Counted from the first letter of the whole stretch, positions 3,688 to 54,640 are shown. The stretch is DNA of 57,226 nucleotides, filler included, from Stramenopiles sp. TOSAG23-6 (GCA_900128565.1; 27 parts of 27 records of this genome joined end to end with filler, not necessarily neighbours in it); one strand, 5' to 3'. Notes: a model not told the origin generated them from the sequence alone. Numbers and translations: made by a program.

Positions 3688-4691
3688 GACATTCCTAGAA
3701 CTTTTCCAGAATTGGCTTTTTTTCATTCCGATGATTTTCCAGAAGCCGAAGCTTTGCAAAATGTGCTTGGAGCATGTATCTTTTATTTTTTTTTTAAACA
3801 AAAAAATCGAATTTATTTTTTTTTGTTTTTATAAAAATTTTGTACCTAACAAATTTTTTTAGTTTTTTTTGAAATATTTTTCCAAAATACATATGCCTGT
3901 TATAGACCGGATATCGGATATGTCCAAGGAATGTCATATTTAGCAGCAATGTTTCTATTATATATGTACGTTTTTACCATTCATTTCAAATTTTAACCCT
4001 ATTCGTATTATATTGTTACAACATTGTATTATTATTATTATTTTCTTTTTAAATTCACTACATATTTTTTTGACTTCAAATGTATTCAAAAAATACCTAA
4101 TCAAACAATCAAAATGGTTAAATATTTTCATACAATATATGGATTCTTATAGTGCATTTCAATGTATGATCAATCTTTTATCAGGTCCTTTCTATTTAGC
4201 TTTTTATCGTCTTGAAAAATGTTTGTTTCCATAACCCTAACCCTACATTCATTTTTATTTTATAGAAAATTTTGTACCTAACGAATTTTTACTAAAATTG
4301 TTTTTTATTCACAATACATGTAAAATGAAAAAGTATTTAAACGTTTATGAGAAACTACTTCAAATTGAGTTACCTCAATTAGAAAAACATTTTAAAACTA
4401 TTGGAATTACAAATGAAATGTATCTGTTAGAATGGGTGTATGTGTCTCAACCCTAACCCTAATTTTAAAAAAAAATCCGTAAAAAACATTTTGAACCTAA
4501 CAATTTTTTGTCAACCAAAAATTTATTTTTTTTCTCACAATACAGGCTAACATTATTTACAAAAGCTTTGCCTCTGACTGTGGCGTCTCGCGTTTGGGAT
4601 TCTTATTTATGTATGCAGGGTTCAGAAAGTGAATTATTTTTGTATAAAGTTTCGATTGGGATATGTAAAATTTTTAGAGATCAATTATTAT
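3688..4691 (+). CDS. TBC-domain Rab GTPase-activating protein, partial; exons 3688-3775, 3893-3965, 4141-4220, 4320-4437, 4546-4691
   Basis: Spliced product DIPRTFP...[30 protein letters not shown]...EWVLTLF...RVWD has the DxxR and YxQ TBC catalytic motifs; exon phases are consistent. Confidence 0.9.
3776..3892 (+). mobile_element. GT-AT intron, Introner-like family copy
   Basis: GCAT|GTATC...TGTACCTAAC...CCAAAATACAT|ATGCC; removal gives LGAYACYRP. Confidence 0.8.
3966..4140 (+). other. GT-AT intron (divergent)
   Basis: TATAT|GTACG...TACCTAAT...CAATATAT|GGAT; removal gives LLYMDSY. Confidence 0.8.
4221..4319 (+). mobile_element. GT-AT intron, Introner-like family copy
   Basis: AAAT|GTTTG...GTACCTAAC...CACAATACAT|GTAAA; restores frame; no AG after the branch site. 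Confidence 0.8.
4438..4545 (+). other. Canonical GT-AG intron of the same family
   Basis: GGGT|GTATG...ACCTAAC...CACAATACAG|GCTA; removal gives EWVLTLF. Confidence 0.85.
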
Positions 4692-4900
4692 GTATGTTTT
4701 ATTTTTTTTTTTAACAAAAAAATCGATTTTTTTTTTTATAAAANNNNNNNNNNNNNNNNNNNNNNNNNNNNNNNNNNNNNNNNNNNNTTAATTAATTAAN
4801 NNNNNNNNNNNNNNNNNNNNNNNNNNNNNNNNNNNNNNNNNNNTTCGTACGAAATTTTGTACCTAATGATTTTTTTTTGAAATATTTTTCCAAAATACAT

Positions 4901-5063: not shown

Positions 5064-5087
5064 TTCGTGGTGAATCGTACTATTCAA

Positions 5088-5161
5088 TTATTCCATATCT
5101 ATACTACGAAACGTTATGAATAATTATTCCATATCTATACTACGAAACGTTATGAATAATT
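5088..5161. repeat. 36-bp tandem duplication in 3' UTR
   Basis: TTATTCCATATCTATACTACGAAACGTTATGAATAA twice. Confidence 0.85.
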
Positions 5162-5291
5162 TTGTATAATAAGCAAAAGTGTGAAAAATGATTTTGTACA
5201 TTATTTTATTCAATTTTTTTTGTTAGTAAATTTTGTACCCCGAAAATAAAAAAAAATTTGAAATTGAAATATTTTGTTGACTTTTTTTTAA

Positions 5292-5894
5292 TTAAATCAT
5301 TTTTTGACTTTCTCTCCATGTGACGCTTTCAAGATAAATTTGTAGAATTCCTGCTGCTACAGCAAAACAAGCTAGCTCGCATCCTCCTTTGATAGAATCG
5401 TTTATTACAATAATAGCAACAAAAGATAACGTATTTTGGAAAAATATTTGAATAAGAAATCGTTAGGTACAAAATTTCGTACGAAAAACAAAATCGAATT
5501 TGAAAAAAAAAATAAAACATACACGGTAGAAAAAACTTCGCTTTTCCCCTACACCAAATCCGTGAAATTCCCCCACATTGATGTATTGTGAAAAAATATT
5601 TTTTTTTTTATTTCGTTAGGTACAAAATTTAGTACGAAAAAAAAATTAGATAAAAAATTGAAAAAAATAAAACATACATGTACTGTGAAAAAATATTCTT
5701 TTTTTTTTTCCGTAAAAAAAATCGTTAGGTACAAAAAATTTCATCGTAAAAAACATGAAAATTTTGAAATTGAAAAAGTACATATCCATAACATAATATT
5801 AGGTTTGGGAGACAAAGTAGAACAAATGTAAAGTTATAATTTTTCGATAATGCTTCAGTAAGAGAAACATCATGGAGTTTGTTTTGTTCCTTAA
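5292..5894 (-). CDS. 3' part of a multi-pass membrane protein; exons 5894-5782, 5580-5523, 5428-5292
   Basis: Splicing gives a continuous hydrophobic ORF ...LILCYGY|QCGGISRIW...FFLP|LSFVAIIV...ESQKMI*. Confidence 0.7.
5429..5522 (-). mobile_element. GT-GT intron, Introner-like family copy
   Basis: ACCGT|GTATG...TTCGTACGAAATTTTGTACCTAAC...CCAAAATACGT|TATC. Confidence 0.75.
5581..5781 (-). mobile_element. Two adjacent GT-AT family copies (5781-5678 and 5677-5581) with no exon between them
   Basis: Each has a donor, GTACCTAAC and a TACAT end; flanking exons are in frame only if both are removed. Confidence 0.75.
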
Positions 5895-6052
5895 ATATAT
5901 TTTGGAAAAATATTTCAAAAAAAAATCGTTAGGTACAAAATTTCGTACGAAANNNNNNNNNNNNNNNNNNNNNNNNNNNNNNNNNNNNNNNNNNNNTTAA
6001 TTAATTAANNNNNNNNNNNNNNNNNNNNNNNNNNNNNNNNNNNNNNNNNNNN

Positions 6053-10930: not shown

Positions 10931-11108
10931 CCGGTAAAAAAAAAAATCGAATATTTTTTTTTATAGTAAATTTTGTACCTAACAAACAATTTTAGATTTT
11001 TTTTTTTTGAAATTTTTTTCCAAAATATTTATTTCTTTTCATACGAAATGTTGTACCTAACAAACAAATTTAGATTTTTTTTTTTTGAAATATTTTTCCA
11101 AAATACAT

Positions 11109-11815
11109 GATCTACAAAGAACAATTGAACGTCATATTACAAATTAAAATATATGATATTTTGGATTCAACAAACTTTCCGTATGACAATCAAAACAATT
11201 CGATTACTATTGATCAACAATTGAGAAAACTTCAAGAGACGAATAGTTTGAATTCATCGTGGTCGAAAGTGGCTGTGTATCATGTATGTGAATGATTTTT
11301 TTTTTTTTTAAGTTTTTTTCATACGAAATTTTGTACCTAACAAATTTTTAAAAAGTTTTGAANTTTTTTTTTCACAATACATTTATTCGATTTAAGTACA
11401 AATGGGAACCAAACAATCGGTCTTGCAACTCTTGCCGAACCAAGTTATAATGGTTTGTGTACAAAAAGCAATGCCTCTATTACCCGGGTGGTAAAATCAA
11501 ATCCAAGTTGGGTGACTTTTGCCCATGAAATTGGACATAATCTTGGAGGTCGTCACGTATGTTTTTACTATTAGGGTTAGGGTTGTTTTATAATTTTTTT
11601 TTTTTTTTTTTTTGGTAAAAAAATTTTGTACCTAAGAAAAATATTTTTTTTTTGAAAATAAATATTTTTCCACAATTTATGTATGGGATATCGGGCCAGG
11701 GGAACAAGCTGGTATTGGTGGAATAATGGATTATGGAGATAAATTACAACTTGATTATTCATATCAATTTCACCCTTCGAATAAAAAATATGTCTGTGGA
11801 GTTTTGAAAAAAAGA
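11109..11815 (+). CDS. Reprolysin-like (M12B) zinc metallopeptidase, partial; exons 11109-11283, 11383-11556, 11681-~11815
   Basis: HEIGHNLGGRH zinc motif and GGIMDY Met-turn come into frame after intron removal. Confidence 0.85.
11284..11382 (+). mobile_element. GT-AT intron, Introner-like family copy
   Basis: TCAT|GTATG...TACGAAATTTTGTACCTAAC...CACAATACAT|TTA. Confidence 0.8.
11557..11680 (+). other. GT-AT intron containing TTAGGGTTAGGG
   Basis: CAC|GTATG...GTACCTAAG...CACAATTTAT|GTATGG; links the zinc motif to the Met-turn exon. Confidence 0.75.
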
Positions 11816-12865
11816 TTTTTTTTTTTTTTTTTTTTTTTTTTAGTAAATTTTTTACCTAAAAATTTTTTTTAAAAATTTTGAAAAATTTTTTAAAAAAAAA
11901 TTTTTTTTTTTTTTTTTTTTTTTTGTAGTAAATTTTGTTCCTAACAATTTTTTTAGAAAATTTTGAAATATTTTTCAAAAAATATGTNNNNNNNNNNNNN
12001 NNNNNNNNNNNNNNNNNNNNNNNNNNNNNNNTTAATTAATTAANNNNNNNNNNNNNNNNNNNNNNNNNNNNNNNNNNNNNNNNNNNNAAAAAAATATTTT
12101 TTTTTTTTTTTCGTAAAAAAAAACAATTCGTTAGGTATGAAATTTTCTTATAAAAAAAAATAGGTAAACAAATCAATTTTGAAAAAAAATATTTTTTTTT
12201 TTTCATAAAACAATTCGTTAGGTATGAAATTTTCTTATAAAAATAAATAGGTAAACAAATCAATTTTGAAAAAAAATATTTTTTTTTTTTTTTCGTAAAA
12301 AAAAACAATTCGTTAGGTATGAAATTTTCTTATAAAAAAAAATAGGTAAACAAATCAATTTTGAAAATGTACAAGATGTTTGATGTGAAATAGAAAGCTT
12401 TAACAATTCTTTCTGTGAGACTAAAACAAGAGAGTGTCCATGTAATTTTACAAAGATATTTTATATTCAATTTTTCTGTTAGGTACAAAATTTGGTACAA
12501 AAAAAAATAAATTCGAAATTGGTAAAAATTCAATTTTGAAAATGTACATTTGGACATTTTATGTTTTTTTGTAATTTCTGATTTTGACGTTTTTGTTCTA
12601 ATAATTTATTCTTACGATGAATTTCATCATTCCGGCGAATAAGACTAACAATATGCTCATTTTCCTTTTTGTCATTTATAATAGCTTCACTGCGGAATTC
12701 GCGAAGTTTTGAACTGAACTGTCAAAACATATTTCAAAAATTTGATTTTTTTTGTTAGGTACAAAATGTTGTATGTTTTGGGTTAGGGTTTTACAAAAAA
12801 ATGTAGGTAAAAAAAACGTACAGACCATTGATCCAATCCCCTTGTTCAAGGGTAGTACATACATC

Positions 12866-12965: not shown

Positions 12966-13136
12966 GGAATATTTGAATATTTTTTTTTACACGATTTGAA
13001 CAGTTGAATAAGTCCAGTTTTTGTTGTACAACGTATTGTGAAAAAATATTATACGTTCAATTCTTTATTAGGTACAAATTTTATTACAAAAAAAAAAAAA
13101 AAAAAAAATAGGAAAAAAATTTCCTAAAAAAAAAAA

Positions 13137-13175
<39 letters not shown>

Positions 13176-13320
13176 ATACAAATTATTGCCCCNNNNNNNN
13201 NNNNNNNNNNNNNNNNNNNNNNNNNNNNNNNNNNNNTTAATTAATTAANNNNNNNNNNNNNNNNNNNNNNNNNNNNNNNNNNNNNNNNNNNNATAAATTA
13301 GAAATTCATATAAAACATAC

Positions 13321-21831: not shown

Positions 21832-22783
21832 GTCTGTTCGTTTGTGGGATGGTGCATCAGAGAAATGTCTTCGAATATTGCAACATCCTGATATACCATG
21901 TGTTGCTTGGCACCCTTCAAGGCCTTCATTTTGTCTGACAGGTTGTTGTGATTCAAAATTAAGAGTATGGGATTTAAGTCTTGATTTGCGTTCTTCTACT
22001 GAAAGTCGTGTAGGGTTAGGGTTAGGGTCTGAGAAGATTTGTGGTAGTGAAAATCCAAGAAAAGAATTATGTAAAGTTGTCGATTGGACATCAACACCAA
22101 GCCCTGTAACTGCAGTTACATATAGTTTAGATGGAGATATGGTTGTTGCAGGATTATTTAATGGTTTATGCATTTTTTTCACAACGAAAACGACGACAAA
22201 TCTTAATAGTGTTTGTTTTTCTTACATAACTTTTTTTTTTTTTTACCAAATTTGTTTTTCTACCGAATTTTGTACTTAACAATTGTTCTGGAAAAAAAAA
22301 ATATATATATTTTTACAATACATTTTAAAGGTAAAAGAACATCTATTGTACATAGAAATAGAAACTTACCTCCACGAATGCAGTTTCTTAGAAAAGTTGT
22401 TTGTCGTAATCGACATGGCGCGATGGCTCAAGGAAAAAAAGTGACTGGTATGGAATTCGATGATAGTGTATGTTTTTTTCATTCATCATGAATATTGTAG
22501 CTAGATTTTTTTTTTTAAATTCTATATATGTATACAGTTTCATTATGGATTTCAAATGTATGTATTTGTTTTGTATCACATTTCATATACTAAACAAGAA
22601 AAAAAAATTAAAATATTTTTTTGTTTACATGGAAATAGACTTTTGGTAACAACAAGCGACTCCCGAATGCGAATTATAAAAATCCAAAAACTACAAAATT
22701 CTTCAGGTAATTCAAATGATAATAGACTTAGTTTTATAATCAGTGATAAACTAAAAGGCCTTGAAAATAAAGATACTGGATAT
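21832..22783 (+). CDS. WDR44-like WD40 protein, partial; exons 21832-22210, 22324-22467, 22631-22783
   Basis: VRLWD, CVAWHP, DSKLRVWD, CRNRHG..GKKVTGMEF, RLLVTTSDSRMRI; introns end in CAT. Confidence 0.8.
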
Positions 22784-25381: not shown

Positions 25382-26390
25382 GGTACTTACAATGATAATG
25401 AGGTAACATTCTCTTCAAAAGATTTTGCAAGTCAAGACACCTTAATGTTTTGTAAAAACGATATTTCTAATGAGGATTGTCATTTATTTAAAACATCCCT
25501 TGATGTAATTGAAAACATTTTAAGTATGATGAATAAATACGAAGTTGGCTTGAGTGATGCCACTCTTGGTCATTTACTAAAACAAGCAACTACAAATTGC
25601 ATTGAAGATGTTGTTCATCAAAGAAAACACATTGAAGATGTTGTTCAACAAAGAAAACAATTGGGTATAAAAAGTAAGCGAAAATATAATAAGTATAGTG
25701 CGTTACATGGAGGTGCATCTCGTCATGTATGTTTTATTTTTTTTCAAATTCGATGTTTTTTTCTTACGAAATTTTGTACCTAACGGTTTTTTTTTGAAAT
25801 ATTTTTACAAACACATGGTTTGGCTCCAGAATATTCAGCGATAAGTTTTGCGCAAGGTCTGAAACTTTTAGATACAGTTGAATCATTTGTCCTTGTACGT
25901 TTTTAAGCCTAACCCTAATTTCAAAAATATTTTTTTTTCGTACGAAATTTTGTACCTAACAAATTTCAAATTTTGAAATATATTTTGACATTTCATGGAC
26001 CTGGTAAACCTCAACAATTTCTTCCTAGCCAAATTGCGTATTGGGCAAATCGTATTCAAAGATCTCGCAATGAAATCAACAATAAAATGAAAACAATTTC
26101 ATTACTTACAAAAAAAAAAAAAAAAATTGAAAATATTTCAGCAAAACCAAAAGATATTGTCAATTTAAAATTGCTTGACAATTTATTAAAGTCAAAAGAT
26201 ACGAAACCATTACATTTACATAAACCAAAAGATACGAAACCATTGCATGTACCATTACATTTCCATAAACCAAAAGACATTAAACCATTACATGGTCTTG
26301 ATCTTATTATAACTCGATCATTATCACTTTCACCTCGAACGAGAGAAATCATTCGTATGAGTAAAACACTACAAAAACCAAATAGTATAT
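25382..26390 (+). CDS. Hypothetical protein, partial; GT-AT introns at 25727-25816 and 25895-25996
   Basis: Exons of 345, 78 and 394 nt join in frame (SRH|GLA, FVL|GPG). Confidence 0.65.
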
Positions 26391-36340: not shown

Positions 36341-36760
36341 TGTCTCAATCNGAATATTTCCGTCTATTTGCTTCTAATAGTCATTCGAAATCTTGGAGAT
36401 CTGGTTCGGTAGTGTTCAGAAATACAAATATATTGCAAGTTGCAACGGCCGAAGCCGTTTATCGAAAAAGGTACACAACAACACGATCAACGAAAGACAG
36501 GTTTGTTATGTAGTCCTATTTTTTTCATACGAAATTTTGTACCTAATGAACAAAAGCTTTTCTTTTTTTCAGAAAGTTCTTTTCCGTTTCAATATCTTGA
36601 TTTTTTTTTTCATACAAATTTTTGTACCTAAACAAAAAAAANCTCGGAAGAGGAATAAGATTCTCACTCGCTTCTGCTTCCACAGTCGACACTCCTATCT
36701 TCTGTACAGCTGATAATTCTAAATCGTATTGTATTTTGAGTGTATAGCGAATAATTCATC

Positions 36761-39889: not shown

Positions 39890-41416
39890 ATGGCAACATT
39901 TTGGAAGTCTTATGAAAAGCATTGGTGTAAATATTGCAAGACATGGATGCCTGGTAACAAGAGTTCTATTATAAATCATGAGAAAGGAAAAAGGCACAAA
40001 GAGGCTGTGTTGAATCATCGCATGCAGTCTCGGAAGAAGAATGCTGAGAAACTCGCGAAAAAAAAAGCTGCTGATAAGATGATAAGAGATCTAAATCGTG
40101 CAGCGGAGGCGCAAATGGATAAAGACATGTCAGGTGGACTATTGAATAATCGTAGTGGTTTTGCGCGGCCTTCCTCAGAACGTCAGCAACACGATACTCG
40201 TCCGGAACAAAAGACTCAGGGCAAAGCACCCAAGAAAAAGGAAAAGCCGAAACAGAGTGTCCCGGGTCCATATTGGCCTCGCCCAAAAGCTCCTCCCAAA
40301 GAAGAGCGTGATCTCGAAACATATCCTCCAACTGACAATCGTTTCAAAGGTCACTTTATGGTCCATGGAGTCACTTATCTTAGTTCTGCTGTTTTTGAAA
40401 GAAAATTGTGCATTGGGGTCGAGGTAGAAGTATGGGATCCAAGTAGTAGCATTTGGAGAATTGGAATAATAAATGGTGTTAAGTTAGTCAATAGTAATGA
40501 AAAAAATAGTGTAACTCCAGCCATCATTAGGAGATACAGAGTGAATACGTCGATACAAGATCATGATATTTGTGATGATGAGTTATCCAGTGACCCTAAC
40601 CCTATTTGTGATGATCAGTTAAAAAAGTTATCCACTGAAAATGTTTATATATTCACTGCCATTGAAGGATTGCGTCTAGTCCCTCCTGGACCTCCAAGTT
40701 TAAGTTTTCATGTACAATCAAATATAGATCACAAAGAAAGTTATATGAAAAAAGAAGGTAATGAGATTCACTCAGATAATGAGATTGACTCAGATAATAG
40801 TAAAAGCAATAGTAAAAAACGACGAAAAAAATCTCGTTGGGGGCAGAATAACCCTATCCCTAATAACCCAAGTAAGAATAAAGTTGAGTTGAATGAAGAG
40901 GATAATAATAAAGAAAGTATTGCTACTGAGAAGACTAACGCTAGTATGTCTGAAATTTTTGGTTTTGGAAATTGGGAAGTTATGAAGAAAATACCAAAAA
41001 AGACAGACAAAATAAAACCCACAAAAGAAATTCATAAATATGCTTTTGCGAATGAAGCAGAGGCAAAAGCATATTATAAACATCAAAAACAAACTGCTAA
41101 AGGATACGATTTTGAAGGTGACAATCCAGATGATCATGAAGGAGTTGTTGATGCATTATCAGCAGCGAATCCACATGTATGTTTTATTTTTTTCAATTTT
41201 TTGTCTAAATTTTTTTCGTACGAAATTTTGTACCTAACAAATTTTAGGTTTTTTTTTTCAAAATATTTTTCCAAAATACATGGTGGTGCGTATCGAGGTG
41301 TTCAAATTTGTGATAAAGCTCAAACGAGAGCAGAAATGATGACAACAAAGCAAGACGATGGAACAAAAGTTAAATTTAAAAAGAAGCGGAAGAAAAAACG
41401 AAAAAAAATGGGTTAA
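39890..41416 (+). CDS. WBP4/FBP21-like U1-type zinc-finger spliceosomal protein; GT-AT intron at 41177-41281
   Basis: M..FWKS..KHWCKYCKTW...HEKGKRHK and basic FKKKRKK tail; spliced NPH|GGAYRG. Confidence 0.8.
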   Translation: MATFWKSYEKHWCKYCKTWMPGNKSSIINHEKGKRHKEAVLNHRMQSRKKNAEKLAKKKAADKMIRDLNRAAEAQMDKDMSGGLLNNRSGFARPSSERQQHDTRPEQKTQGKAPKKKEKPKQSVPGPYWPRPKAPPKEERDLETYPPTDNRFKGHFMVHGVTYLSSAVFERKLCIGVEVEVWDPSSSIWRIGIINGVKLVNSNEKNSVTPAIIRRYRVNTSIQDHDICDDELSSDPNPICDDQLKKLSTENVYIFTAIEGLRLVPPGPPSLSFHVQSNIDHKESYMKKEGNEIHSDNEIDSDNSKSNSKKRRKKSRWGQNNPIPNNPSKNKVELNEEDNNKESIATEKTNASMSEIFGFGNWEVMKKIPKKTDKIKPTKEIHKYAFANEAEAKAYYKHQKQTAKGYDFEGDNPDDHEGVVDALSAANPHVCFIFFNFLSKFFSYEILYLTNFRFFFSKYFSKIHGGAYRGVQICDKAQTRAEMMTTKQDDGTKVKFKKKRKKKRKKMG

Positions 41417-41481: not shown

Positions 41482-43040
41482 TTATTTATTGTACATGTTT
41501 TTAGTATCCATTACTATCCCATCCATATCATCCACAGATGCTGGCATGTAAGACACTCCAGCAAGAGGTACCCAACATCCTTGTTCTATACTATACTTAG
41601 GATCGCCCAAACTCTGTAAATGCTTAGGGTTAGGGTCATTTTCAAGTTTAGGATCGCCAAACTCCTGGTGTTGCTTTGGGTTATTTTGAAGTCGAATTGC
41701 TAAAATCCGAAATAGCAAACTTGGGCTATGAACATTTTCACTATCATGTACTTCAATATGAATATGAGGTTCTGGTGCGAAACCGACATCTCCAGAAAGA
41801 CATAGAATTTCACCAGATTTTACCAAATCACCCATTTTAAATTTAATAGAGCCTTTTTTAATGTGGATGTAGAGTGAAGAAATATTTTGAAAAAAATGAT
41901 TTTTTTTGTTAGGTATTATTCTACAGTAGGGTTTAGGGTTCATTTCGAATTTTTCAGATTTTCAATGACAAAAAAAAAACATTATTATGTCAATAAAAAC
42001 AATAAGTGGATTAGGGTTGGGGTTAAAGTGGATAACATACACATAATCTACAACCACAGATGTGGTACAATTTCGTTTTGATTCATCTGGAACAGGTATC
42101 GGCATACCATCCTTATTTAGAAACACTTGAAGTGAAATAGAATTCCAATTACACAAATTAGAACAATGAATGCCAGTCACTTCATTTCGATGGGCTATAT
42201 CAGTGATGATACCATCACCAATGGCAGTCACGGGGGTGTCAATATCACACCGAAGGTCAAACGCATGTATAGTGAAAACAATTAGAAATCAAAAAATTGT
42301 TAGGTGAAAAAAAAACTATACAATACAAATACAACAGAGTTGAAAATAATCCTCTCAGATATTTGAAAAACACAATGAATTTGAAATGTATGATGGAAAC
42401 GTACATGAAATGACTCAGGGAAAAAATGGGTAAGTCTACCCCCATTGCCTTGGGTACAGAGAAAAGGACCAGTACCACCTAAAGGAAAATTCTGAAAAAA
42501 AGGAATGACTTTTTGTTTTTCCCCTTCTNTATCAGGATGTTGAATAAGGGGAAACGCGAGTTTTGAAGTCTCCATTTTTGACCATATTGTACGGGCAACG
42601 TCAAAACGGGTTTTCGGTGGTATGATCAGTATAAATGTAATACAGTCCACAATATATGTACCTTTGACACTTGTTCTATGTAAATCTGAAGTCTTACCTA
42701 TTTCCAATTTCTTCTTATTCCCATCAAGAAAAGTAAGTGTATTCACTACTGTAGCAGAGGCATTATCACTTGATTCGTCACATTGACCTGGTGTTACAGA
42801 CACATATACTACTTGTTCTACATCTGCCACATTTGAAACTGATAAAATATGACTACCGTGTGAAATATCTACAGTGTCGTCAATCAAAAAGGCCATTTCT
42901 ATCTTATCATATTCTTCCTCATCACAATGCTCTTCACTCCAACTTATCACTTGTTCATCAACAGCAGAAACGCCAACTAACCACGGCGTTTTTGAATCAG
43001 CAATATGACAACCAGGACAACCACAACACAAGCAATTCAT
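41482..43040 (-). CDS. M23-family zinc metallopeptidase; exons 43040-42405, 42264-42041, 41866-41482; GT-AT introns at 42404-42265 and 42040-41867
   Basis: TQG...TH...H|AFD, TPV.A..DG, Y-V-HI, GD.V..G, SG..G...PHIH motifs restored by splicing. Confidence 0.88.
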
Positions 43041-43342
43041 TGGACAATAACTCCACACAAGTGCTGGTGGTAATTCTAAGTTTCTTTCTTTATATAGTGT
43101 ACCTGTTTACACCACTGACTCGCTACTATCATCAGATTCTGATGTCTAAAAAAATAGATTCAGCTAAAAAATACTACTATTTAGGGTTAGGGTAGTATAT
43201 TGGTATTTCACTATTGTATATTACACGATACCATACTCGTGGATATCGTGAACACAAGGCGATTTCCGGTGTATTAATATTTCCCACCTTGGGTTGTCTC
43301 CTTGTTGAATTTTTCATTCACTTTGTAGAAAAGAGAGTCTTA

Positions 43343-44785
43343 ATGGTTCCGTTTGTCGCTGTAATTATATCACTTCTTGCAACCACTGGCCAAGCAGAGA
43401 ATTTTAATTGCGAGAAAAAAGACTGGGAAGATTGTCAGAAGGTAGAAGATTCTTGTGACCTTTATTGCCGTGATATTTTAGGCAAATCTCTTTTGAATTG
43501 TGAATCATGCCGATCCGATGAAAACCAGATAGAATGTCTACTTGCTTGTGCGCCAGAGACTTTATATGATGATAGAGCAAAAGATATGTTTGAGTGTCAT
43601 ATGAAGCAGTGCTTAGATATTGTTCCTGGGTCTTCTCCTATTGATGCGTTGGGTATGCGGTCCCTGGTTAATATTGGTGGTATTAAGAATTCTGCTTTAT
43701 TGCATTGCAATGATCTTGTTAAAACTTGTATACAAGAAAAACAATGCAAATCACTGTTGCAATTATCCATGGGATGCCAAAATGAGATTGATGTTCAACA
43801 GTGTTTCGAAAACAACTTTACGGACGGTATTGGTCAGCGCCTTGTAAAGTGTATGACGGAATTTAACTCCTTTGAATTTCTCCAAAATGAACCTGAGCCT
43901 GAAATATTAAATACGTCACATGTTGACGCAACACAATTTGCTGAAAGTATTTCTAAGATGAGTGGCTGTAAGGAGTCTTGTTCTTTATGGAACTGTGGAT
44001 CAGAAGTTAATAAATGCATAAATGATCCTCAGTGTATTGTCACCCTAAAGTGTGTGGAGTCTTGTAGTTCTTCTGATGACGAAAATGCGATTGAATGCAC
44101 GAAAGAGTGTTTTGAAAAGGTTCCTATTGGAATTCAAAACGAGTTAATGACATGCTTGACACATCACGAGTGTCTACCAACTATTTATAGTTTATCTGGT
44201 TTGTATGAAGATTTATCTGCAGTATCATCTGAAGTATCTTCCTCCGTGAAATCGTTTGTAGACGCAGTTTCTTCTATTTTTAATACTTCTAGCATGTGTG
44301 GCTTGTTTCAATGCGGCTCTTCTTTTCATGAATGCGAGACGGACGAGAAATGTGGGAGAAATATCGAATGCATTAGATCATCTAGGGGTGCTTCTAGAAA
44401 TGCATGTGTGACATCATTAGATGAAAAACACTTATCATTGCTTAATTGTTTACAAGAAAGTCGTTGTGATTCCATAAAAACAGTCGCTGTACATCGGGAT
44501 CATCAGGGTAACACTTATATGAATATACCAAGTGTAATTCGTGTTCGTGGATATTCGCATCCATTTTCATTAGTCCAAAAAGAGATGATGGGTGTGCGTA
44601 GTAAAAGAGGATATAATGAAGCTACTGTTTACGATTCACCAAGTGAAAATGATTCATTATCTGAAGTTGATATTCACGGTGAAGTACCGACAGCTTTGCT
44701 AATGGATCAAAGACGAACATGGAAGTTTTCAGTACTTCCACCTGAACCAGTAGTGACAGGGTTTGAAACTAAGAAAAATGTTTGA
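43343..44785 (+). CDS. Secreted cysteine-rich repeat protein
   Basis: Signal-peptide-like start; repeated C...C..E...C..D..C...C units. Confidence 0.75.
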   Translation: MVPFVAVIISLLATTGQAENFNCEKKDWEDCQKVEDSCDLYCRDILGKSLLNCESCRSDENQIECLLACAPETLYDDRAKDMFECHMKQCLDIVPGSSPIDALGMRSLVNIGGIKNSALLHCNDLVKTCIQEKQCKSLLQLSMGCQNEIDVQQCFENNFTDGIGQRLVKCMTEFNSFEFLQNEPEPEILNTSHVDATQFAESISKMSGCKESCSLWNCGSEVNKCINDPQCIVTLKCVESCSSSDDENAIECTKECFEKVPIGIQNELMTCLTHHECLPTIYSLSGLYEDLSAVSSEVSSSVKSFVDAVSSIFNTSSMCGLFQCGSSFHECETDEKCGRNIECIRSSRGASRNACVTSLDEKHLSLLNCLQESRCDSIKTVAVHRDHQGNTYMNIPSVIRVRGYSHPFSLVQKEMMGVRSKRGYNEATVYDSPSENDSLSEVDIHGEVPTALLMDQRRTWKFSVLPPEPVVTGFETKKNV

Positions 44786-52845: not shown

Positions 52846-53101
52846 TATTTAGTTTAAAGATGAACAGCGAAGTGATATTAAATTACCCTAATTTAATTGA
52901 AAGAAAGTTACCTTCAATCGAACAATTATTATTCCGAATCTAAATCTCAAATAAATCTATCCGCGAACTCCGCGAATCTTGAAAACCTGAAAAAATGGGA
53001 GAAAACGAAAAATAGAAAATTTGAAAATTAACATCAGATTATTTATTCTCAAAAATCCATTTTATTGTGAGTAAAAATAAATAAATATAGCTCATAATAA
53101 A

Positions 53102-54640
53102 ATGGACGAAGGCCTTCCTTTGGAACTTGTTGATTTTTTGAATGAAGCATGGACTCCGTTTCACGCAGTCGCACGTGTTGCTCGTGAGTTGCGTAACGCA
53201 GGCTTTGTCGAGTTGGATGAAAGAAAAGACTGGTCCCAGGATATCAAGAAAGGAGGCAGATACTTCTTCACACGGAATCACTCTTCACTTGTTTCTTTTG
53301 CAGTAGGTTCAAAATTCGAACCAGGAAATGGTTTTATAACTATTGGAACTCACACAGATAGCCCGTGTCCTAAATTAAAACCTGTTAGCAAACTAAATAA
53401 AAGTAAGCACTTAATGCTTGGTGTGCAATGTTACGGTGGAGGTCTCTGGACTACTTGGTTTGATCGTGATCTTACCATTGCTGGTCGCGTAGTTGTTCGC
53501 CGGCCTGGTGGTAATTTTTCTCACGAGCTTGTGAAGGTATCTAGACCAATTTGTCGGATTCCAATGCTTGCGGTGCATTTAGCCCGAGGAACAGGTACTG
53601 ATTTTAAGTTAAACACAGAAACAGATTTTGCACCTGTACTTGCCACCGAACTCAAGACTGCACTTGACAACGCAGATGGTGATTTCTCTGAGTCAAAGGG
53701 GGGAAGTTTGACACATCATCATTTACTTTTAAAACTAATAGGAGATGAGCTAAAGTGTAATGTCAACGATATAGCTGATTTCGAACTTCAATTGTGCGAT
53801 ACTCAACCCTCTGTCATTGGTGGGGCTCTGAAGGAATTTATATTCAGTGGTCGCTTAGATAATTTAGCATCATGCTTTATGGCAATGCGCTCTCTTGTTG
53901 ACAGCACTAGTGATATGGACCTTGTAAATGAAACTTCTGTAAGAATGATTTGTATGTTCGATAACGAAGAGGTAGGTAGTTCTAGTGCTCACGGTGCATG
54001 TGCTCCTATAATTATGGATACAATTCGTCGAGTCACCGGTGTTTTTTCGCAGGAAACTGGGGTCAATGAGCGAGCCGTACAATCATCATTCCTTATTAGT
54101 TGTGATATGGCTCATGCGGTGCATCCTAATTATTCATCAAAACATGAGTCAAATCATACGCCTCAGTTTCATAGAGGAATGGTCATAAAATACAATGCAA
54201 ATCAAAGATATGCGACCACAGCTGTAACGGCATTTCTGTTTAAAGAGCTAGGTGCCATGGCTGAAGGAGGGGGTTGCCCAGTTCAAGAATTTGTCGTGAG
54301 AAATGATTGTGCCTGTGGAAGCACTATTGGGCCAATCATATCTGGTAGAACAGGACTGCGCACTGTAGACGTTGGAGCGCCGCAGGTCTGTTTTGATTCA
54401 AATTATCATTTTAAATTTTTTTCTTCTACTTTGACAAATTCATTCTCACAAAAAAAAAAACGTATATATATTCACACAAAGAAGTGGTCAATGCATAGTT
54501 GTAGAGAAGTAATGGGCACAGGTGATGTCATTCATGGTGTTCGCCATTTCCGGTCATGTTTTAAAAATTTCTCACTTCTCAACAAAAAAATTCAAGTAGA
54601 TGCAATACCTGGGATTTCATTCTGTCAGCCTTTACCATAA
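53102..54640 (+). CDS. DNPEP: Aspartyl aminopeptidase (M18); canonical GT-AG intron at 54386-54484
   Basis: TPFHAV, HTDSP, WFDRDL, RLDNL, FDNEEVGS, DMAHAVHPNY, GSTIGP, GAPQ|WSMHS. Confidence 0.95.
   Translation: MDEGLPLELVDFLNEAWTPFHAVARVARELRNAGFVELDERKDWSQDIKKGGRYFFTRNHSSLVSFAVGSKFEPGNGFITIGTHTDSPCPKLKPVSKLNKSKHLMLGVQCYGGGLWTTWFDRDLTIAGRVVVRRPGGNFSHELVKVSRPICRIPMLAVHLARGTGTDFKLNTETDFAPVLATELKTALDNADGDFSESKGGSLTHHHLLLKLIGDELKCNVNDIADFELQLCDTQPSVIGGALKEFIFSGRLDNLASCFMAMRSLVDSTSDMDLVNETSVRMICMFDNEEVGSSSAHGACAPIIMDTIRRVTGVFSQETGVNERAVQSSFLISCDMAHAVHPNYSSKHESNHTPQFHRGMVIKYNANQRYATTAVTAFLFKELGAMAEGGGCPVQEFVVRNDCACGSTIGPIISGRTGLRTVDVGAPQVCFDSNYHFKFFSSTLTNSFSQKKKRIYIHTKKWSMHSCREVMGTGDVIHGVRHFRSCFKNFSLLNKKIQVDAIPGISFCQPLP

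Follow-up and report, generated by a model that had tools for sequence, protein, structure and literature searches.

The locus and the interrupted gene

In a stretch of DNA from Stramenopiles sp. TOSAG23-6 (GCA_900128565.1), two intron-like elements, here called e1 and e2, lie back to back on the minus strand of a protein-coding gene, at positions 5581-5781. The whole stretch that was analysed (the window, 57,226 bases) is not one locus. It consists of 27 separate contigs, 24 of about 1.1 kb in descending order of length and three of about 9.4 kb, chained by linkers of the form N44-TTAATTAATTAA-N44 (for example at 4744-4843 and 5953-6052), and contigs that are adjacent in the window are not adjacent in the genome. 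The host sequence has long, intron-poor open reading frames (ORFs), the standard code, close gene spacing and a G+C content of 24-39% per 2-kb bin. The tandem site is found on a 1109-nt contig (4844-5952), where the interrupted gene is present as a fragment. Read along the minus strand, the features are as follows; e0 to e3 are copies or part-copies of one repeat family, and X1 and X6 are sequencing runs.

5895-5952, minus strand: e0, 3' part of a family copy truncated by the contig end, last bases ...CCAAAATATAT; profile match 5953-5897
5782-5894, minus strand: exon A, 113 nt, open frame, ending ...TGTTATGGATAT (..CYGY)
5678-5781, minus strand: e1, complete copy of 104 nt, GTACTT ... TTTTGTACCTAACGA ... 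CACAGTACAT; box GTACCTAAC at 5722-5736
5677-5678, minus strand: junction of the e1 3' end (..ACAT) and the e2 5' end (GTATGT..), a zero-length exon or candidate recursive splice site, spanned by a DNA contig of X1
5581-5677, minus strand: e2, complete copy of 97 nt, GTATGT ... TTTTGTACCTAACGA ... CACAATACAT; box GTACCTAAC at 5613-5627
5523-5580, minus strand: exon B, 58 nt, QCGGISRIWCRGKAKFFLP, in frame and within a polyA-RNA contig of X6
5429-5522, minus strand: e3, complete copy of 94 nt, GTATGT ... ATACGT (CCAAAATACGT), with CCGT upstream; missing from the RNA contig
5292-5428, minus strand: exon C to the stop codon (5294-5292), ending ..LSFVAIIVINDSIKGGCELACFAVAAGILQIYLESVTWRESQKMI, in frame and within the RNA contig

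With ^ marking a cut, the minus strand reads GGATAT^GTACTT...GTACCTAAC...CACAGTACAT^GTATGT...GTACCTAAC...CACAATACAT^CAATGT. The two elements add up to 201 nt with zero bases between them, and the juxtaposed 3' and 5' splice sites at 5678/5677 read ..CACAGTACAT^GTATGTTTT. A preliminary description of the sequence had reported two complete abutting units with a zero-length exon, and every string that it quoted is present at its minus-strand position. It had also held that the frame requires the loss of all 201 nt, which is borne out: a single ORF through the three exons is obtained only when e1, e2 and e3 are all removed, giving FKEQ...LILCYGY^QCGGISRIWCRGKAKFFLP^LSFVAII...QKMI and a stop, with FFLP^LSFVAII at the joint of exons B and C. 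If e1 is ended at CAG, as the description had considered, a 5-nt micro-exon (TACAT) is kept, the frame shifts and stops follow shortly after exon B. The back-to-back arrangement is real in the sequence; it follows neatly from the way the family behaves and is of minor importance.

Neither exon A nor exon C belongs to a Pfam family, and exon C gave no match as query in a homologous-protein search (longer and near length ranges). The interrupted gene, searched with HMMER against 1.84 billion representatives, gave four weak matches; the two that were examined, a repetitive protein and a long repeat protein, are unrelated to it.

The 1109-nt contig carries five copies or part-copies of the family in all. 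One of them, at 4843-4899 on the plus strand, is a copy represented by its 3' part, after which the sequence looks coding (..ATACAT^CCTCGAC..). The contig also has a perfect 36-nt tandem duplication (5086-5161, 2.1 copies, 100% match), located between its two convergent genes.

Size and structure of the repeat family

The family was counted within the window, and copies with both ends inside a contig (n=19) were taken as complete. A 15-mer core around the CCTAAC box has 41 matches at two mismatches or fewer, compared with 0.19 expected from shuffles, and a profile of the 19 complete copies has 46 matches at E<=0.01 in 57 kb, equal to 6.4% of the non-N bases. The density of profile matches is 1.32 per kb in the small contigs versus 0.28 per kb in the large ones. 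A copy is found at 13 of 52 contig ends, in line with what a high-copy repeat that interrupts assembly would give. Two additional, diverged members with the same ends were recognised by eye, TAT^GTATGT...ACAT^ at 31029-30937 and CAT^GTACGT...ACAT^ at about 42397-42264.

In each member a U2-type 5' site (GTATGT or similar) is followed by a small hairpin, then by a box resembling a branch site (TTTTGTACCTAAC), a tract rich in T and a conserved 3' box (CCAAAATAC or CACAATAC) with AT after it, the whole ending ...ATAC+AT. The consensus of the 19 aligned copies is GTATGTTTTATTTTTTTT..(T-rich)..TAC.AAATTTTGTACCTAACAAATTTT..TTTTT.AAATATTTTTTCACAATACAT; G1, T2, T6 and the ACCTAA core are invariant. 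Lengths vary from about 90 to 175 nt, the longer members being 149 and 174 nt, and the distance from the branch-like box to the 3' end is 36-47 nt.

All complete copies are in the sense orientation of the flanking ORFs. The host genes are unrelated and include those of an M23 peptidase and a zf-U1 protein (Pfam, both below the cut-off). Another host contains what we take, from the motif and not from a search, to be a TBC motif, and yet another presumably encodes a metalloprotease of the HExxH type.

A conserved small palindrome, GTACGAAATTTTGTAC, which forms a 6-bp stem and a 4-nt loop in predicted folds, is located directly 5' of the branch-like box and overlaps it in most copies (5460-5490, 5613-5640 and 41220-41240, among others). 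Telomere-like CCCTAA/TTAGGG repeats of about two units are present within the 5' portion of several introns of the family and at a few other places (4230-4250, 4450-4470, 11575-11590, 12775-12790, 25905-25920, 41930-42030 and the regions of 32376 and 41568); the branch-like CCTAAC is itself a substring of (CCCTAA)n. Two partial family matches on the plus strand at 36512-36639 lie just upstream of a Serinc gene, the ORF of which starts at 36755, and possibly represent an intron in the 5' untranslated region.

Outside the window, the 17-nt core was found at 64 loci in metagenome contigs and at 6 in viral contigs. When five whole elements were compared with the core loci by blastn, the matches listed covered 17-23 nt at the seed only. 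These loci are treated as probable chance matches, and the family was not found there.

Boundaries of the removed units

Each of the 19 copies was cut from the first G to the last base, and the frame was examined on both sides. In 16 of 16 testable single copies, taking out the sequence from G1 to the last T or G keeps one frame open for at least 28 codons on either side (28-150 codons to the left and 29-143 to the right). The remaining three are e1 and e2, which are judged jointly only, and c13075, with four codons upstream. The last two bases removed are AT in 15 copies, GT in two and AG in two, so that 17 of 19 copies lack the near-universal AG end.

Of the 19 copies, 13 have a length divisible by three (p=0.0019 against one third), and 11 of these 13 copies would introduce an in-frame stop if retained. 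The frame test has real power for the copies with other lengths, e3, c11628 and c22272, and for the e1+e2 pair; all four fit, and exactly these lengths are needed. In the TBC-type gene the joint lies within the conserved motif and neither adds nor removes anything. The two copies ending in AG, c4493 and c12762, align base for base with the AT members. Since they are in register, the 3' cut of the family lies where the normal AG sits, T replacing G.

Phase 0 is found in 11 of the 19 complete copies. In c19978 and c41230, whose lengths are multiples of three and which lack an in-frame stop, retention adds 46 or 35 residues and leaves the protein unbroken.

One intron outside the family (54386-54484, 99 nt), which belongs to the gene of the M18 aminopeptidase, is of the plain GT...AG kind, and its joint GAPQ^WSMHS is backed by a homologue of 69% identity. 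Taken with the family ends, this intron indicates that the organism uses both kinds of 3' end. The gene itself, an M18 aspartyl aminopeptidase at 53081-54640 on the plus strand, has this one ordinary GT-AG intron, and its assignment to the M18 family was confirmed via Protein Atlas. The database coding sequence P0002 (408 aa) is identical to the M18 gene of the window where aligned and skips segments of the genomic ORF and of the homologue P0003; this gene model looks over-spliced. P0002 bears a source label starting with GSMAST3, and this nearest labelled protein thereby points to marine stramenopile group 3 (MAST-3) as the lineage of the host.

The same units can be described with both cuts placed 2 nt upstream, as AT...AC (GT...AC for e3). 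The family would then consist of AT-AC-type introns, perhaps minor-spliceosome-like. With repeated AT or GT ends the resulting mRNA is the same for 12 of the 19 copies, and the 3' end becomes a uniform ..TAC; U12-type splicing is also known to tolerate non-AG ends. Where flank and end are unequal, as in c41916 (41867-42040), c22272 (22211-22323), c25952 (25895-25996) and c13075 (13031-13179), the GT..AT cut and the shifted cut differ by V/I, S/N, L/H or not at all, at unconserved positions, and these copies are not decisive. The GT..AT cut is preferred because G1 and T2 are invariant, because with shifted cuts 4 of 19 copies would begin with AC, CT or TT, and because two members, read without the shift, are ordinary GT-AG introns. 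With the shifted cut the invariant GT and the GTATGT consensus would fall inside the intron.

U12-type introns have the 5' motif RTATCCTT and the branch box TCCTTAAC 10-26 nt from the 3' end. The consensus found here is GTATGTTTT, with the box GTACCTAAC at 36-47 nt, and the U12 type was rejected on these grounds. Within the window, a search against Rfam gave no family at the gathering score. The shifted, AT-AC placement is accordingly considered quite unlikely, and the GT..AT placement is used below.

RNA and DNA contigs

The evidence from RNA and DNA consists of assembled contigs of sequencing runs. The stretch is contained in three small DNA runs of one organism and in seawater metagenomes and metatranscriptomes. 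X1 is one of the DNA runs, X3 an independent metagenome and X6 a polyA metatranscriptome.

Record 17 of X6 (215 nt, one mismatch) has 5278-5428 joined directly to 5523-5582, with exactly e3 missing. The match stops at 5582, which is 2 nt (AT) past exon B, and four unplaced letters remain. As both elements end in the same five bases, TACAT, the match would extend to 5585 or beyond if e2 were retained, if e1 were retained with e2 removed, or if the micro-exon were present. The end of the match at 5582 is the one expected from ..GGATAT^CAATGT; it fits the joint removal of e1 and e2 and is not proof of it. Exon A has no RNA cover in the runs X6 and X9, which is not counted as evidence in either direction.

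In DNA, record 2 of X1 (5132-5483) and record 10 of X3 (5132-5442) run from exon C into e3. Record 6 of X1 (306 nt, 5616-5923, no mismatch, depth 16, about that of the exons) runs from e2 across the junction through e1 and exon A into e0, and extends 62 nt on one side of the junction and 246 nt on the other. X3 contigs of other copies stop matching at 5581, with 17 loose ends, and the repeat unit therefore includes the terminal AT. Depths over the element cores are sums over contigs and are not read as copy numbers.

The abutment could be an artefact of assembly or of single-cell whole-genome amplification, with truly one unit at the site. Contigs of about 1.1 kb often break in this repeat, as the 13 of 52 contig ends illustrate. 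The sole bridging DNA contig comes from X1, which is possibly the assembly's own data and hence not independent, and X3 has neither depth over exon A nor a contig across the junction, so that independent DNA support for the tandem is missing. Against an artefact, the bridging contig is the product of a second assembler and spans the junction on both sides at depth 16 and without a mismatch. Moreover, e1 is divergent and largely unique, and both units are complete within an orderly AT-AT-AT layout. An artefact is regarded as improbable.

The contigs also bear on whether the units are lost from RNA or from DNA. Ciliate-type internal eliminated sequences are cut from the DNA, and they resemble the units described here in their precise removal, in being short and AT-rich within coding sequence, and in the short direct repeat at both ends. 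However, the DNA contigs that contain e3 and the e1/e2 junction have a depth of 16-20x, equal to that of the exons, and no joined form is present among the DNA contigs listed. The host has the standard code and long ORFs, the units end in GT..AT and not in TA, the GTATGT site, the CTAAC box and the T tract are present, and all copies are sense-oriented. Elimination from the DNA is very improbable and was rejected.

Insertion site and origin of the tandem

The 2 nt preceding the element are AT in 11 of the 19 copies, GT in four, TT in two, AC in one and CT in one, the background frequency of the AT dinucleotide being 0.097. The flank equals the element end over 2 nt in 12 of 19 copies (9.1 in shuffled pairings, p=0.03) and over 3 nt in 8 of 19 (4.5 in shuffled pairings, p=0.007); one of the 19 pairs, in which the flank of e2 is the end of e1, is not independent. 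The telling cases are e3 (CCGT^...ACGT^) and c19978 (AAAT^...AAAT^), in which flank and end deviate jointly from the consensus. Of the eight copies with a non-AT flank, four nevertheless end in AT, which argues against pure target duplication. A 2-3-nt direct repeat is likely from this pattern. The AT end, usually CAT, is probably also under selection as a splice signal, an effect that is inseparable from duplication here.

According to the preliminary description, the second copy had inserted at the AT left by the first, in support of mobility and of AT targeting. This account holds in part. The layout AT-[e1]-AT-[e2]-AT is the one expected from a second insertion at a duplicated AT, and AT is the flank of 11 of the 19 copies. 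No empty site or insertion polymorphism that would show mobility was found, and, given the AT ends in copies with non-AT flanks, the terminal AT may be a splice signal rather than a true target-site duplication.

Alternatively, the tandem may have arisen by local duplication of one resident intron, through unequal exchange or slippage. The copy closest to e1 among the 19 is indeed e2 (0.71, the next being 0.68), and internal tandem duplications of family sequence are present at 12119-12349 (minus strand) and 10953-11107 (plus strand). But e2 is nearer to five copies elsewhere, namely c41230 at a distance of 35 kb (0.79), e3 and c20208 (0.75), and c51739 and c11333 (0.74). The pair is 29% diverged and was not called by Tandem Repeats Finder. 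The internal duplications, of three and two units of about 80-95 nt, are copies of inner parts of the element without their own GT or ..ACAT ends, unlike the e1/e2 pair, in which both units are complete and bounded by AT.

The identity of 71%, the closer relatives of e2 elsewhere and the silence of Tandem Repeats Finder favour two insertions over a recent local duplication; an origin by local duplication, an old one included, is considered unlikely. The simplest account is that the copies inserted independently of each other, both at one AT or the second at the AT beside the first. In a rough estimate, 19 copies placed at random on 55 kb would give an exact abutment in the same orientation with a probability of about 0.003, which suggests that the element prefers its own border or that copies are strongly clustered.

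Proposed removal of the pair

The best explanation of the 201 nt, with a probability of roughly two in three, is that they are two separate members of a high-copy family of introner-type, transposon-like spliceosomal introns with non-AG ends, and that both are removed. Each member would supply its own GTATGT, hairpin and TTTTGTACCTAAC box, T-rich tract, and 3' box with AT. The message would lose the sequence from the first G through the last T, with a 3' end that is AT, sometimes GT and rarely AG. The second copy would have landed at the AT beside an earlier copy, leaving AT on both sides of each element and no exon between them.

Removal could then follow three routes. If e1 is taken out first, AT^GTATGT is rebuilt for e2; if e2 is taken out first, the normal end of e1 then meets exon B; in the third route a single cut reaches from the 5' site of e1 to the end of e2. 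All three would give the same mRNA, and removal in two steps and removal as one 201-nt intron are equally compatible with the data. We infer that the chemistry is spliceosomal, and likewise the exact cuts within the 2-3-nt repeat, the independence of the two insertions and the order of removal.

In the third route the 201 nt would form one composite intron, with the 5' site of e1, the branch box and 3' end of e2, and no recursive step; the 3' half of e1 and the GTATGT of e2 would play no active part. The frame logic and the end of the RNA contig fit such an intron equally well, a length of 201 nt is near the range of a family with members of 149 and 174 nt, and no intermediate was seen in the contig data. 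However, both units keep all conserved signals, including the GTATGT of e2 and the CACAGTACAT end of e1, and each lies in the commonest context of the family, with CAT upstream (6 of 19 copies) and G downstream (10 of 19). The 5' end of e1, GTACTT, is furthermore the most deviant of the 19 and the only one without the usual G, C or A at +5 followed by T, which makes sole reliance on it less attractive. A composite intron is a possible but somewhat unlikely alternative.

Several other observations speak against two separately removed members with GT..AT cuts, in addition to the dependence on X1 and the lack of X3 contigs described above. For the copies whose length is a multiple of three, the frame test shows neither the exact boundary nor removal. 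In AT-flanked copies the cut can equally be drawn as AT...AC. The 3' end of c12762 was shifted by 1 nt after the alignment had shown ..TCAG, the copy having failed with the first placement.

Direct RNA proof is at hand for e3 only, which has a GT end and a CGT/CGT flank repeat, and its cut has four equivalent placements (GT-GT, TG-CG, GT-AC and CG-TA). The tandem side is covered by one short RNA contig, in which four unplaced letters would correspond to exon A; the interrupted gene has no Pfam family or homologue with which the joint of exons A and B could be aligned. The evidence for a duplicated target is statistical and modest, the terminal inverted repeat is only 4 bp (GTAT/ATAC), and the best match of e1 is e2, as an old local duplication would also leave it.

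As to the wider reading, it is proposed tentatively, and at somewhat less than even odds, that a non-AG 3' site (CAT^, CGT^) is routinely used by the major spliceosome of this lineage of marine stramenopiles, the site being supplied by a proliferating intron-generating element, possibly via the element's own 2-3-nt target duplication.

Comparison with known intron systems

Introners are known from Micromonas, Aureococcus, fungi, dinoflagellates and others (PMC12130899; bioRxiv 10.1101/2022.06.06.494994). Like the family described here, they are many near-identical, short, sense-oriented introns in unrelated genes and positions, with their own splice signals and a short direct repeat at the border, and the enrichment in an aquatic protist is shared as well. 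The occurrence of similar introns at non-homologous positions is seen here in the 46 profile matches and 19 complete copies in unrelated hosts. As for removal from mRNA, e3 is absent from the polyA contig and the frame is restored in 16 of 16 copies and in the pair, with a presumably spliceosomal chemistry.

The described introner families differ in having canonical GT-AG (or GC-AG/AT-AC) borders, whereas 17 of 19 copies here are non-AG; nor is a transposase, a clear terminal inverted repeat or an insertion polymorphism shown for the present family. In the curation of the introner survey, AG and AC were the accepted 3' ends and families with unfamiliar sites were dropped unless supported by transcripts (PMC12130899; bioRxiv 10.1101/2022.06.06.494994). 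A GT-AT family could therefore be missed.

The closest analogue in detail is, as judged by comparison, the AT-ended, YAY-flanked introns of the tunicate Fritillaria. In F. borealis and F. pellucida the commonest intron end is 3'AT (44% and 34%), and a YAY triplet often lies ahead of the 5' site and nearly always makes up the final three bases of the intron (PMC13326754). Introner transposons with weak splice sites are discussed there as one possible source of splice-site divergence (PMC13326754). In the present family, 14 of 19 copies finish with CAT or TAT, and in 9 of 19 the triplet ahead of the element is CAT, TAT or CAC. The main classes in Fritillaria start with AG (AG/AC, AG/AT) and the host is an animal; the introns described here always start with GT, with the consensus GTATGT, and belong to one proliferating family in a protist.

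Repeated introns with non-GT-AG borders and direct repeats of 3-5 nt over the exon-intron boundaries are reported from the marine protist Amoebophrya (PMC7789003), and nonconventional introns from euglenids and diplonemids (PMC12621601, PMC6221363). These have inverted repeats of 8-20 nt or extensive pairing of the ends and no fixed dinucleotides, whereas in the present family only 4-5 bp can pair at the ends and the 5' GT is invariant. A structure-guided removal of the euglenid or Amoebophrya type is not supported, as six units and the 221-nt tandem fold like shuffles (z +0.55 to -1.81). An end helix is possible over 4-5 bp only, as GUAU/AUAC or GUAC/GUAC.

Recursive splice sites with zero-length exons occur in the long introns of Drosophila. 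As in these and in the stwintrons of fungi (PMC8469720, PMC12403724), a 3' site here abuts a 5' site, and the first removal would regenerate a site for the next. The present case differs in that two whole mobile-type introns of about 100 nt are involved and not a ratchet point in a very long intron; unlike in a stwintron, neither interrupts the signals of the other.

Nothing linking introners with marine stramenopiles, and nothing relevant on GT-AT introns in a marine context, was found in the openly accessible literature. One openly accessible paper on single-cell genomes of marine stramenopiles mentions introns in its methods and contains nothing on splice sites or repeats, and a 2026 preprint on protist single-cell genomes gives intron proportions only.

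Another feature of the window

A cysteine-rich ORF of 529 aa at 43196-44785 (plus strand) has a weak match, below the cut-off, to the violaxanthin de-epoxidase lipocalin domain (E=5e-5), which would be unexpected for a heterotroph if real.

Significance

Introners and non-canonical repeated introns are already known; the new element here is a proliferating GT-AT family in a protist, and this non-AG family is itself more interesting than the tandem. In genomes of this kind, gene finders built on GT-AG will produce wrong gene models, and assemblies from single cells or metagenomes will be interrupted at these repeats. The abutting pair offers a compact, naturally occurring substrate for asking whether short introns act as autonomous units and whether the element prefers its own border for insertion.

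If the proposal on the major spliceosome is true, the 3' splice site of thousands of introns would be whatever the transposon duplicated, and the cut would be set by the conserved ..ATAC box of the element and not by AG. The pair would be a natural zero-length exon in which each unit of about 100 nt is recognised as a self-contained intron, and the elements would seed further insertions at their own borders. A protist lineage would join the tunicate Fritillaria, independently of it, as a case of AT 3' ends, here spread by a mobile intron family; the recognition of 3' splice sites, and the way it co-evolves with mobile introns, could then be tested in a second system.

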